Source of the DNA: Octopus vulgaris
Lineage: Eukaryota
Direction of reading: 5' to 3'
Length of the DNA: 64,000 bases
NCBI GenBank assembly: GCA_951406725.2
Contig: OX597833.1
Coordinates: forward strand, 21,080,001 to 21,144,000
Made by a program: the position numbers and the translations under genes. The notes under the pieces were generated by a model. The model saw only the letters and a program-made list of their open reading frames with translations, did not search any database and had not been told where the DNA came from. Below, piece after piece: positions 6,044 to 36,453 of this stretch; the stretch's first letter is position 1; the number at the start of each line of letters is the position of its first letter.

Positions 6044-8172
6044 TTATTGTATGGAAAGTGTTCTGCGTAGGATGTGTGCAGTGCCTAGTAGTGCAATTTT
6101 CTGTATGTTATATGTGTTTGTAAGTCCTGGTGTTTTTGTTATGTATTTGTCTGAATATTTTTTTATCATGCCTAATGCACCTACTATGATAGGAATTGTT
6201 TCTGTTTTTAGATTCCACATTCTGGTTACCTCTATTTCCAGGTCTTTGTATTTTGAGAGTTTCTCCATTTCTTTTAGAGACACGTTGTCATCAGCCGGTA
6301 TTGATACATCAATTAGAAAGCATTTTTTTCTTCATGGTCTTTGACAACTATATCTGGTCTGTTGGCCTTAATTTCTCTATCTGTGTGTATCGGCATATCC
6401 CAGAGTATGGTTGCTTTCTTGTTTTCTGTGACCTTTTCTGGTGTGTGCCTATGCCATCTTTCTTCTGTTGTTATTCCATAATGTTGGCATAGCTTCCAAT
6501 GTATGTAGGTACCAACTCTGTCATGTCTGTGAATATATTCCTTCTTAGCCAGGACTGGGCAGCTAGAGATAATATGATTTATTGTTTCTTGTCCATCTCC
6601 ACATATTCTGCAGTTACTTGTTATATTTCTTTTCATTACATGTTTTTGGTAATTTCTGGTGGGGAGGCTTTGGTCTTGTGCTGCAATTAAAAATCCTTCT
6701 GTTTCTGCTTTGAGTCCTGAGTTTCTCAACCATTGCTTGGATTTTTCTTTGTCAATTTCTTTTGCGTTTAGTTTAGTGCAGTATTTACCATGAAGGGGCT
6801 TTTCTTGCCATCGTTTTATCATGGTTCGTTGCTGTTCTATTTTTAGTTTGGATTTCATTTGTTTTATAGCTTTTGTTGTTTCTTCTTCTTCTTCTTCTTC
6901 TTCTTCTTCTTCTTCTTCTTCTTCTTCTTCTTCTTCTTCTTCTTCTTCTTCTTCTTCTTCTTCTTCTTCTTCTTCTTCATATTTATTAGGTGGTATGATT
7001 TCTTGTTTGTATTTGTCAGCTTCCTTAAATACTGAGAACAGTTTTTTGTTTTGCTCGTGTTTTGCCGCTATTTGTATCAGTTTTCCTTCCTTCTGAAGTA
7101 GATATTTTTGCAATCCTATGGTGGTTATTTTATAGTAGTTTTCCAGTTGTATAAGGCCTCTACCACCTTCTATACGTTGTATATATAGTCTTTCTATGTC
7201 AGAGTTTGGGTGATGCATCCTAGATCCTGTCATTATTTTTCTTGTTTTCCGATCTATTTTGGTCAGTTCATTTAGTGTCCAGTTAAGGATATTGTAGCTG
7301 TAACTTATAACTGGGACAGATTAAGTGTTAATACCTATTATCTTGTTTTTAGCATTGAGCTCTGTTTTTAGTATTGATCTAACTCGTCTATAATATTCTT
7401 TTTTTATTTTCTCTTTCATTTGTGTGTGTTGTGTCTTATCTAGTTCATGGATTCCTAAGTAATTGTAAGTTTGGCTTTGGTCTAATTCTTTTATTTCATT
7501 GGTTTTATCTAGTGTGATGTTGCTACTCTTAACTAGTTTTCCTCTTTTCAGGGTTACTTTGGCGCATTTTTCTAATCCAAATTTCATATCTATTTCTTTG
7601 GTAAATCCATGAACTGTCTTTAATAGTGTTTCCAGCTGTTTGTCATTTGCAGCGTATAGTTTTAGGTCATCCATATATAAAAGGTGACTGATCGTTTTGC
7701 CGTAACATTTATATCCGCATCCAGATCTATTTAGCATATCATATAGGGGTGACAGTGCCAAGCAGAAAAGGAGTGGAGAGAGCGTGCCTCCCTGGAATAT
7801 TCCTCTTCTAATGGGGATGTCTTTGGTTTTCATGAGTCCCTCTTTTATTTGGAGCTGTAGCACTGTTTGCCATTTATTCATAGAGTGCCCTATGAATTTT
7901 ATGATTGTTGGTGCTACTTTGTTAATGGCTAGTGTTTCGAGGATCCATGTGTGGGGGATGCTATCAAACGCCTTTTTGTAGTCGATCCAGGCCATACTGA
8001 GGCCTTTCTTCTTTCTGTGGCTGTCTTCAGTTATGGCTTTATTAATCATTAGTTGATATTTACAGCCATATGAGCCTTTGCGGCATCCTTTCTGCTCTTC
8101 TGGGAACAGTTTGTTTTCGTCCAGGTGCTTGTTCAACCTTTGCGATATCACTGCAGTAAATGGCTTGAACAT
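6044..8172 (-). pseudogene. Disrupted Dong-like ORF (nonsense at 7321, frameshift near 6325, in-frame poly-Glu)
   Basis: ORFs 7321-8172 and 6313-7233 share a frame and are split by TAA. The C-terminus continues in another frame (6044-6283). Confidence 0.9.
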
Positions 8173-8272
8173 TGTTTATAGCACTGCAATAAATGCCTTG
8201 AATATTGTCGATATCACTGCAATAAATGCCTTGAACATTGTCGATATCACTGCAGTATATGCCTTGAACATT
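8143..8272. repeat. 33-bp x4 tandem repeat at the LINE 5' junction
   Basis: cgatatcactgcagtaaatggcttgaacattgt variants; reads as NVQGIYCSDID-like x4. Confidence 0.9.
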
Positions 8273-13299: not shown

Positions 13300-13950
13300 T
13301 AAAAAGGAAGGTGACTCATGGGTCGATGTCTCAATGAAAAACTACGGCGGAGATAAAATCGCCGATCATTTTTGATTATTTATCCCGAACGTCCTTAGAA
13401 AGCGCAACTAGCAAAGATTCGGATTATAATTGAGACGACGACCTGACAGTTTCAAGTAATATGAGTGTTAACATTATGGATGCTGTTAGGAAAGAACTTT
13501 AACAAGAATCTTCAAGGAGTTGACTTAAGCATAACTACCATTTTTTGTCTAACTACAATCAAATTCTTAGCCATTATTTTACGTCTTAAAACAGATGCAT
13601 ATTACTCATTCAGAAAGTTGAATGATGAAATTGTATATATTGATAGTAATACTAGTCAGCCCACAACTATAATTAGAAACTTAGCGGTTAACGTTAATAA
13701 AAGATTTTACAATTTATACTCAAGCCAATATATCTTTGATTGCACCACAACCCATAGCGTGTCATGCGCGAGGTGTAGCATCAGTGAGAATTTATCAAGT
13801 ACAGATGATCAAGGAAGATAAATGTAACTTGGTTCAATCCTCCGTTCAACTTAGGTGGTTCCACAAACACGCGCAGAAGCTTTTTATCTCCTCATTAGAC
13901 GTAGTTTCTTAAGGAGAGATAAAAATAAGCTTTTTAATGTACATATGGCT
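13300..13950 (+). pseudogene. Decayed Penelope-like RT remnant
   Basis: YYSFRKLNDEIVYIDSNTSQPTTIIRNL..SSQYIFD and downstream NVTWFNPPFN, matching VIWFTPPYS of the element at about 36290. Several stops and frameshifts. Confidence 0.75.
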
Positions 13951-26468: not shown

Positions 26469-26849
26469 CATACATACATACATACATACATACATACATA
26501 CATGATTGTATACAAAATCATATATATACCGTATGCATATATACCGTGCACACAAACATCACGTTTCACCACTTGAAACAAACGTTGCACATTACACGAT
26601 ATTTAAACCACTCGGCTATTATTCGCTTTATAAACCGTGTATTTATTTCATTGGGACGGTTTATCGTTATGCTATGTAGTTATGAAAAGAAATTGTTTTT
26701 TCCGAGGCATTTACCTTCTTCACAACTACATGTGAATTTGAAACCAGGGAATATGGTTTAATGCTTCCTGTTTATTTTAAATGGGTTATTCAATTACATC
26801 TGCAACACAAAAGCGTCACTGCTCTATCACGCAACTGTCTATCTATCTA

Positions 26850-28335
<1,486 letters not shown>

Positions 28336-29220: not shown

Positions 29221-29296
29221 TGATCACACTGACGAGTTGCGGACAATTACGTAAATAATTACGTAAGAGGTAACAACGAAATCGGGTTTGTGATTA
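29221..29296 (+). ncRNA. Type I hammerhead ribozyme
   Basis: tgATCACA-CTGACGA-GTTG..CAAC-GAAA-TCGGG-TT-TGTGATta, inside a (TA)n-flanked ORF-less unit 29112-29448. Confidence 0.78.
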
Positions 29297-30697: not shown

Positions 30698-30705
30698 ATA
30701 TATAA

Positions 30706-30900
30706 ACACGAGGTGGTGCTGAAAAGTTCCTGGCTTTACGGGTATTGCGAAAGGTCACGCTGCAAGTCCATCTTCCGAGTCCCTTTACAGGGCTAAGGAT
30801 TGCTGCAACAATTGTATGAATTTGAAGGGGGGATATGTTGAATAAAACCATAATTAGCTGATCTTCCTTGAATTTCCTTTTTACCAAAAGCTAGGAACGT
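30706..30900 (+). mobile_element. Internally deleted mariner-like remnant
   Basis: cgaggtggtgctgaaaagttcc TIR-like start; CMNLKGGYVE* resembles a mariner C-terminus. Confidence 0.55.
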
Positions 30901-31144
30901 GTGCTATTTGCTATGTACCACTCGCTAAACTCCTCTCTGCAGTCCGAATGATCTGCATTGAGGGCATGGACAATTCTTGGAATGTAACTTTTCCAAAAAC
31001 TGAGTTTTGTGTAAATCGTTATTGTGTTATTTTTGCTACGCAATAGGACTGAACCCGGAACCATGTGGTTGGAAAGCAAGTTTCTTACCACACAGCCACG
31101 TAAAGATTCTGTAAATATCAAATTGATAAAAATTTATGTATAAA

Positions 31145-31238
31145 CTGCTACCATGTCTGGCAACGAGTGTTCACCACCGAAGAGATCCAACACGGATTGA
31201 AACCACGTCGTCTGGTGAACTTAAAGCCAGGGTGGCAG
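31145..31238 (+). ncRNA. Type I hammerhead ribozyme with extended stem I (U4C core)
   Basis: GTTCACCA-CCGAAGA-GATCC-AACAC-GGATT-GAAA-CCACGTCG-TC-TGGTGAAC; distal pairs CTGGC/GCCAG and CTGCTACC/GGTGGCAG. Confidence 0.85.
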
Positions 31239-31382
31239 GGGTTATCTCCCGCTTGCAATAAATATCGGGCACGAGAAGCGCACTGAGTAAACCAGCTGGA
31301 AGAGATGTCTTCTTGGAATTAAATTACAATGCCATCGTCTCTTAGAGGACAACCATATTAAAGTGGCTATAAGCAATATCTT

Positions 31383-31415
<33 letters not shown>

Positions 31416-31453
31416 CACACACACGCACACATACGCACACGCATGTATTTACA

Positions 31454-31885: not shown

Positions 31886-32463
31886 AATGCTAAAAAAACC
31901 CACCATAAACTCATGATAAAGATACACATGAGTAATGCAATGAGCATATGAGAAATAGACCTACCTTTGCGTTGAATACATCAGTAAGTAAAGTATATTT
32001 CAATATCAATTGATTTCACGCTTAGCATGACAAACATACTGTGCGATCTTCAGTTGAAAATAACTGTAACATCTATTTCTAAAATATTCACTACATTAGC
32101 TCGTGTACTTTCCTTACTTTAAACGTCCCGCTTTGTTTAAAAGAAAACTATCGTGAGCAAGATAAAATTTAGATAAAGAAGTATTACTGTTATCAATAGT
32201 ATTAATGAGGTGGCTAGCAAATGCACACCGTTACAGGCACAATATAAGGTAAATTTAGATTTAATAGAGTATATAATACCATTTGCTAAAATCAGAGTCA
32301 ATGTTCCAAAAACCACCATAAACTCACGATATGATACACACGAGCAATGCAATGAACATATGAGAAATAGACTTACCTTATCTTTATCGTGAGTTTATGG
32401 TGGCTTTTTTGAGCATTGGGTCTGATCTTAGCAAGTGATATATCCTACTGAATCTAAATTTAC

Positions 32464-32470
<7 letters not shown>
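31886..32470 (-). mobile_element. ORF-less hammerhead element with about 80-bp direct repeat and inverted 5' piece
   Basis: 31886-31967 resembles 32300-32379 (period about 413). 32380-32470 is an inverted copy of 32242-32335. (TA)n on both sides. Confidence 0.78.
31998..32059 (-). ncRNA. Type I hammerhead ribozyme (U10.1-U11.1 variant)
   Basis: UUUCAA-CUGAAGA-U-CGC..AGUAUG/CAUGCU..GCG-U-GAAA-UCAAUUGA-UA-UUGAAA. Confidence 0.82.
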
Positions 32471-35370: not shown

Positions 35371-35444
35371 TAGTCAAGATAAAACTCTGAGTTTCAGATG
35401 CCGAAGTGGAAATCCACAACACCATCTCATCGGTTATCTGGCTA
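35371..35444 (-). ncRNA. Type I hammerhead in the Penelope 3' region
   Basis: AGAUAA-CCGAUGA-GAUG..CAUC-U-GAAA-CUCAGAG-UU-UUAUCU. Confidence 0.8.
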
Positions 35445-35633: not shown

Positions 35634-36320
35634 CTATCCGTTTTCTTTAGGGGACCAAAAACGTAACAGAAATTTAGTCACATGTGGGCATGATCCGAAA
35701 AGCTCTGTCCTTGTATTTAGACATGTGGTAGGGTCTAAGCTGCTTTTCCAGATAAGCCATCTCTCCATGTCGCATAAACCGCACCTTCCGCTGCCGTTAG
35801 TATAGGGCTTACATCTGGCCAAAATCTTCCATTGTATGTTATAATCGACACCTTTATCTCTTAAAGACCAAATATGATTGGATAATTGTGTCGCTTTTCT
35901 TTTGTTCCAGTGCCTAAAGCTCAAAGTGTGGTTATTGAACCTGGCCTTGAAATTACCCTCTGTCAGGCCCACGTATTTCTTCGTCGAAACGGTGTCTTTA
36001 GTGGTTATAGAGTTTACGGTAGCTTCATATATGATGGTCTTGGACATGCAAGCTCCATTTGGCGGGCACAATTCTTTATTCCTGCATGAACAGCTGTTTT
36101 CTTCTTGTGTTTTTTGTATGTTATGATTGATTATGTTTTTAAAATTGGTAGTTGAACTAAAACTAATTTTTAAATTGTGTCTATTGAAGAGTTTCCTATA
36201 AGCATGGTTAACTGGAAAATGTCTATCTATCAGTGCTAGGAAATATTTACCTATATTGAAGGCCACCTCGGGTGAGTAAGGGGGCGTAAACCAGATGACC
36301 TTCCTATTTCTATTATTCCT
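35634..36320 (-). CDS. Penelope-like linker plus GIY-YIG endonuclease (C-terminal fragment)
   Basis: RKVIWFTPPYS..CSCRNKELCPPNGAC..IIYEATV..KKYVGLTE..FKARFNNH..CGLCDME..LNTRTELFGSCPH. Confidence 0.9.
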   Translation of the reverse strand, partial: RNNRNRKVIWFTPPYSPEVAFNIGKYFLALIDRHFPVNHAYRKLFNRHNLKISFSSTTNFKNIINHNIQKTQEENSCSCRNKELCPPNGACMSKTIIYEATVNSITTKDTVSTKKYVGLTEGNFKARFNNHTLSFRHWNKRKATQLSNHIWSLRDKGVDYNIQWKILARCKPYTNGSGRCGLCDMERWLIWKSSLDPTTCLNTRTELFGSCPHVTKFLLRFWSPKENG

Positions 36321-36453
36321 TTTCCTTATTGTTGGGCTGGTGATAGGTGTATATTTTATTTTATTTTATTTTATTTTATTTTTTCGCTAAAACTTTTCTC
36401 TATTTACATAATATTGAGGTCTCTTTCTTTCTTTTGTTATCTTACCGTTTTAT

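Follow-up and report, generated by a model that had tools for sequence, protein, structure and literature searches.

What is the hammerhead-like hairpin at 31145–31238 of this 64-kb stretch of octopus DNA (the window), and does it act on a host transcript? The first-pass annotation described a GC-rich hammerhead whose extended stem I was suited to tertiary contacts, of the sort that make natural hammerheads fast at low Mg2+, and suggested that it could cleave a host pre-mRNA if this strand is transcribed. Each of the parts that it listed lies where it was placed: the 8-bp stem I, two distal helices, the CCGAAGA core, the 5-bp stem II with its AACAC loop, and the GUC. GC content is indeed raised, at ~53% over the 94-nt motif against ~36% locally. 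We read the locus as a 5′-truncated, decayed copy of a dispersed 354-nt non-coding type I hammerhead repeat. The repeat is probably a non-LTR retrozyme that Penelope-like enzymes copied, and in this copy the ribozyme is predicted to have little or no activity; we put the probability of this reading at about 85%. Features are collected in Table 1.

Table 1. Features of the hammerhead locus and its surroundings (window positions unless another sequence is named)
Feature	Location	Strand	Remarks
5′-truncated repeat copy, unit positions 1–238 of 354	31141..31378	+	238 bp, 87.0% to family majority
Extended stem I domain and hammerhead	31145..31238	+	distal helices inherited from repeat family
Outermost helix, window copy	31145-52/31231-38	+	inherited family structure
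Distal helix, window copy	31157-61/31226-30	+	inherited family structure
Stem I 5′ strand	31169..31176	+	31169–31171 differ from family majority, closing former internal loop
Catalytic core C3–A9, CCGAAGA	31177..31183	+	C4 inherited; predicted trap is 31178–80 paired with 31208–10
Stem-loop II	31184..31198	+	basal pair decayed to G·U (31198); loop 3′ A to G (31194), adding fifth pair
G12–A15.1 and 2-bp stem III	31199..31212	+	31209 changed from G; predicted cleavage after 31212
Stem I 3′ strand	31213..31220	+	31218–31219 differ from majority; 31219 is T in second allele
(AC)n microsatellite	31383..31443		directly after family's commonest 3′ end
Unrelated very high-copy short repeat fragment, likely SINE tail	31034..31100		upstream of element
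Broken non-LTR retrotransposon ORFs (RVT_1, zf-RVT) with microsatellite breaks, likely Penelope RT end	6313-8175, 26686-27753, 13465-13821	-, +, +	
Penelope-like ORF pieces in flanks	L115:2716-3654, L130:2895-3758, L114:4112-4507	+, -, -	
Cytoplasmic dynein 2 heavy chain, at least 20 exons	G000:C20:20887784-21045440	-	tblastn; 5′ end points towards window

Eight Watson–Crick pairs make up stem I (31169–31176/31213–31220); the stem II strands are 31184–88 and 31194–98, followed by GAAA at 31199–202, and the GUC ends at 31212. All type I core bases are present (C3, G5, A6, G8, A9, G12, A13, A14, A15.1–U16.1 and H17), with C at position 4. The motif folds at −35.8 kcal/mol (z −4.0, equalled by 0 of 200 shuffles) and, with helix I open, helices I and II reach pair probabilities of 0.78–1.0. 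A type I descriptor found three motifs in the window, where 40 shuffled windows averaged 0.1; under strict settings the shuffled windows gave no match at all, so the hammerhead motif is not a chance occurrence. Some results lean the other way: Rfam returned nothing at gathering score over the 64-kb window; over 30700–31400, its matches at E ≤ 10 were all at chance level and to families other than the hammerheads. In addition, stem III, two pairs closing a 6-nt loop, has a pairing probability of 0.00. Even so, a hairpin that resembles a hammerhead by accident has almost negligible probability, being refuted by the majority sequence of the repeat family described below, in which no core base is missing, all three helices are present and stem III is palindromic. 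The first-pass annotation was right that this is a hammerhead, and it is of type I. That annotation passed over four features: the base of stem II, which is G·U and not G–C; the 2-bp stem III, the weak point of the motif; the predicted pairing of core bases 31178–80 with 31208–10; and membership of a repeat family.

A genome search with 31100–31300 gave 42 matches, with 40 of 172 first-look candidates scored and the best non-self match at 84%. The sequence common to the family copies spans 31141–31378 of the window. Iterative alignment converged on a unit of 354 nt, which copies enter and leave at different points. Circular permutation was evident in that 25 of 77 segments (≥120 bp) were longer than one unit; the longest, of 739 bp, amounts to two units, and no long tandem array was seen among the 77. 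The copy number can be given as a rough estimate only, 100 to a few hundred, from 69 distinct loci fetched in searches that scored 40 candidates each. The unit is non-coding (longest stop-free frames 60 and 84 aa) and 45% GC, and its majority sequence folds as a circle at z −6.9 (100 shuffles). The window copy amounts to 0.67 of a unit and carries one hammerhead. In one family copy, at G000:C21:20645267-20645553, a 42-bp block made up of the stem I 5′ strand, core and stem II is repeated seven times in tandem, an array that likely arose by slippage between two short similar motifs; in the tally of 63 other copies used below, this array was counted only by its complete segments.

The two kinds of end differ in distribution. 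The 5′ ends of family copies occupy all 18 bins of 20 nt round the unit circle, while among the 77 segments the 3′ ends cluster at unit positions 231–250 (34 segments) and 281–320 (23). A dinucleotide repeat directly follows 15 of the 33 copies that end at unit 232–246, and inverted partners were found at 19 of 69 loci. The window copy stops at the commonest 3′ end of the family, where it abuts (AC)n. Penelope-like insertions are described with the same marks: 5′ truncation, an inverted truncated partner, an optional tail and microsatellite targets (PMC8557442). Penelope-like elements have also been proposed as helpers of retrozymes (PMC7229834; bioRxiv 2026.07.22.740005).

These marks could also be left by an autonomous Penelope-like element whose pLTR had come loose, the copies being stumps of that element and not a self-standing retrozyme, and homology between retrozymes and pLTRs in Xenopus (bioRxiv 2026.07.22.740005) points in the same direction. 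We consider this improbable. Nothing is shared beyond the circular unit among 30 loci, and the 5′ ends run round the circle, not into an ORF. No partner element was found: two short Penelope ORF pieces from the window, used as queries, matched none of 129 family-search loci. The helices of the family hammerhead have canonical sizes, not those of the minimal form described for Penelope-like elements (PMC4209133). Set beside the insertions of endonuclease-bearing Penelope-like elements and the pLTR hammerheads in the accounts of PMC8557442 and PMC4209133, the family agrees in all four end marks listed above and in a palindromic stem III suited to dimers; it differs in having no ORF, in its canonical hammerhead, and in a tail of ~60 nt versus the 30–40 bp described.

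Resemblance to the metazoan non-LTR retrozymes is closer (PMC7229834, Cervera and de la Peña 2020; bioRxiv 10.64898/2026.07.22.740005, Li, Clavereau and Pollet). These have units of 170–400 nt with one type I hammerhead, and they are expressed as circular RNA in coral, mussel and axolotl. The 354-nt unit is similar in length to those of mussel (350–390) and axolotl (330–350). Alike too are the type I hammerhead in each unit, a GC content below 50%, the self-paired circle, the dispersed monomers and dimers, and the co-occurrence of Penelope-like elements. Unlike the retrozymes as these sources describe them, the octopus family is old, C4 is common in it, and neither long arrays nor near-identical copies were seen. 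A non-coding unit of about 150–450 nt with one type I hammerhead, permuted copies and a self-paired circle are all features of non-LTR retrozymes that the 354-nt family shows, and the family likely belongs to this already described kind. Searches of the literature turned up no octopus or cephalopod retrozymes; supplements of PMC7229834 and of the preprint may list some. The preprint defines an active retrozyme by two consecutive complete hammerheads. The window copy has one, in two thirds of a unit, and should therefore be unable to release a circle.

On the retrozyme reading, tandem source copies would have been transcribed, and the hammerhead, with a 6-bp stem I, Schistosoma-type contacts and a 3-bp palindromic stem III acting as a dimer, would have cut the multimer into circularisable units. 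A Penelope-type reverse transcriptase/GIY-YIG endonuclease may then have copied the RNA, as circles or multimers, starting at fixed sites and targeting AT-rich or microsatellite DNA. Such copying would fix the 3′ ends, leave the 5′ ends random and give rise to inverted partners. After insertion the window copy would have drifted by ~13%, some changes lengthening helices at the cost of loop contacts and one breaking stem III.

In the majority sequence, stem I of the hammerhead is 6 bp long and stem II 4 bp, the latter on a G–C base and with a 7-nt loop running from C to A; stem III is 3 bp inside a perfect 10-nt palindrome, and the internal loop of stem I follows the Schistosoma U1..:G5U6A7C8 pattern. 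In the Schistosoma mansoni type I hammerhead, the key contacts are made by IL1.U1, IL1.C8 and the 3′ A of loop II (PMC2632901). With the mapping made by analogy, the majority is like it in the GUAC strand, the opposite U–C start and the C-to-A loop II, the loop having 7 nt versus 6. A canonical metazoan layout with palindromic stem III can work as a dimer (PMC4209133). As modelled, the ancestral ribozyme probably worked well.

The window copy differs at each of the three predicted contact bases (31219; 31194; and 31170, where C has become a paired U), and so has no equivalents of the Schistosoma IL1.U1, IL1.C8 and loop II 3′ A (PMC2632901). Three, two, one and none of these bases are kept in 38, 24, 1 and 0 of the 63 other copies; the window copy keeps none. 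The same private mutations that removed the predicted contact bases created its 8-bp stem I and its stem II of 5 bp. The distal helices noted at first pass are present, as inherited family structure, but the suitability for tertiary contacts that was attached to them does not hold up: by analogy with Schistosoma, and not from a structure, the window copy appears poorly suited to such contacts. Stem III has fared no better. The change at 31209 breaks its third pair and the 10-nt palindrome, leaving a predicted dimer duplex of −5.3 versus −16.9 kcal/mol in the majority, so that by prediction helix III forms neither in the monomer (probability 0.00) nor as a palindromic dimer. The same change is predicted to free the core bases 31178–80 to pair with 31208–10, at a probability of about 0.9 (0.90–0.93 in the predicted fold of the window copy). 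The predicted cost of reaching the active fold is 4.8 kcal/mol, versus 1.7 for the majority. U4C is reported to reduce activity considerably in vitro (PMC3088659). Judged by nearest-neighbour folding, the ribozyme of the window copy should cleave very slowly or not at all.

Divergence among copies indicates that the family is old. Identity to the majority is 77–92% (median 86.5%), and no near-identical copies were seen in the family. In 24 copies picked by their non-ribozyme part, non-CpG core positions differ at 8.3% (19/229) versus 9.3–12.3% elsewhere, and CpG positions differ at 27–33% everywhere. The whole core is intact in 5 of the 24, where a neutral simulation expects a fraction of 0.20. 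The catalytic core thus decays at the background rate, and we saw no selection on it. Core and all three helices are retained in 4 of the 63 other copies. C4 was called a natural variant at first pass, and it is one here: position 4 is C in 31 of the 63 copies and T in 29. T-to-C changes run at only 3%, so C4 was inherited; the share of T exceeds the CpG rate, so C4 and T4 may both have existed in source copies.

Compensatory changes were rejected as evidence of selection: they occur in 18 of 56 copies, and simulation expects 24%. A sibling subfamily with the stem I of the window copy was sought by its 3′-strand pattern, which gave 5 matches versus 8 control matches; apart from the window, these included a 58-bp piece of the family (78%) that shares the two bases but lacks the 5′ strand of stem I. 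Nor was a young sister family with this stem III recovered, all three matches being old copies of the 354-nt family.

Could selection nonetheless have preserved this one copy because its ribozyme is active and cleaves a transcript, either of the host or long and non-coding? All of its core bases are intact and its fold is the most stable of 57 copies, which also speaks against our inactive reading. An 8-bp Watson–Crick stem I is expected at ~0.001 per copy under independent mutation, or 0.0002 together with an intact core, and is somewhat unexpected if the family numbers at most a few hundred. An exact 156-nt contig of the window copy was found in one possible RNA run (X1) of the four examined, at a depth of 6.2. 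We still regard selection as very unlikely. The three predicted tertiary bases are lost, stem III is broken and the core is predicted to be trapped. The copy has an unremarkable count of broken pairs (P 0.31), and its only double change, C–G to U–A, is of a kind found in 18 of 56 copies through mutation bias. The contig of run X1 extends 75 and 81 nt to either side of the predicted cleavage site, and the contigs of that run total 304.5 million letters, roughly one tenth of the genome size, so that background could produce a contig of 156 nt. Runs of organisms B and C had no coverage of 31137–31205, which tells nothing either way. The clean hairpin could be explained by its having been singled out at first pass, together with hairpin-templated correction. 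As to conservation of the pairing in homologs, by which the first-pass annotation proposed to judge its claim, the 8-bp stem I occurs in 0 of the 63 paralogs and is absent from a second allele.

That allele comes from a contig of another run (X6), which covers 31071–31380, including flank, with 10 differences from the window. We take it to be a second allele, although the contig could be chimeric. It is deduced to carry the ancestral bases at 31209, 31219 and 31223, since all depth there reads the other base. The perfect stem I is therefore not fixed, and the loss of stem III is recent on the window's side. As modelled, the core of the second allele is not trapped and its active fold costs 0.9 kcal/mol, but only one of the three contact bases is present. 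A transcribed polymorphic switch can be imagined on this basis, the second allele keeping the palindromic stem III and able to fold into the active form, and the window allele locked off by a single core-trapping change. This scenario, resting on models of folding, is to our minds a long shot.

The cleavage of a host pre-mRNA proposed at first pass is without support. The sole host gene found in 464 kb (the window plus 200 kb each side) encodes cytoplasmic dynein 2 heavy chain. Its exons run downwards from residue ~8, which lies 34.6 kb before the window, and the hammerhead is ~66 kb upstream of the coding start, on the opposite strand; this distance and strand also weigh against a selected ribozyme. 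For the one dynein exon first picked up with Pfam, no homolog was found among longer proteins; a second library gave one. A Pfam scan of 225 ORFs (7; 142 of 645; and 76 of 1162 candidates, mostly on the plus strand) gave no plus-strand host exon, in a scan that caught only 1 of the 20 dynein exons later shown by tblastn; it yielded mobile-element domains, weak matches and that one dynein exon. Amniote intronic hammerheads (C10orf118, RECK; PMC3088659) are, like the window copy, single type I motifs outside an array. They are described as conserved across species within genes, whereas the window motif belongs to a repeat copy in decay, no host gene was found for it, and its alleles differ in their helices.

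Penelope-type ORF pieces occur in the window and its flanks, one recognised by a weak Pfam GIY-YIG match; the others we take to be Penelope-type partly on their motifs. Other hammerhead-like motifs were noted in the neighbourhood. A type I-like motif at 29221–29296 (+) has the core CUGACGA, an 8-bp stem I and a long stem II with an internal 16-nt repeat. A minimal-type hammerhead with a C4 core and an extra base before GAAA lies at 35433–35383 (−), with a similar motif in flank segment L109; just 5′ of it is an ORF (35634–36365, −) without a Pfam match, presumably a Penelope-like GIY-YIG end by its motifs. A further minimal hammerhead at ~32055–32000 (−), with a U·U mismatch at the base of stem II, sits within a short element (31886–32470) that has direct and inverted repeats and is unrelated in sequence to the 354-nt family. 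Four more loose hammerhead-like motifs were counted, without a shuffle control, in the flanking 400 kb (L109, L112, L121 and L134).

The window copy is thus likely a fossil, ordinary and inactive, and not a regulator of a host gene. Were the switch to prove real, a retrozyme fossil would decide what becomes of a host non-coding RNA, with outcomes that vary among individuals or between sister species. The locus illustrates that longer, cleaner hammerhead helices can mark the loss of loops that confer speed. The ends of the family fit the proposed, unproven mobilisation of animal retrozymes by Penelope-like enzymes. Its majority sequence joins a natural C4 to the full Schistosoma-type contact motif; PMC3088659 includes the suggestion that tertiary contacts offset U4C, and the combination found here allows that suggestion to be tested directly.
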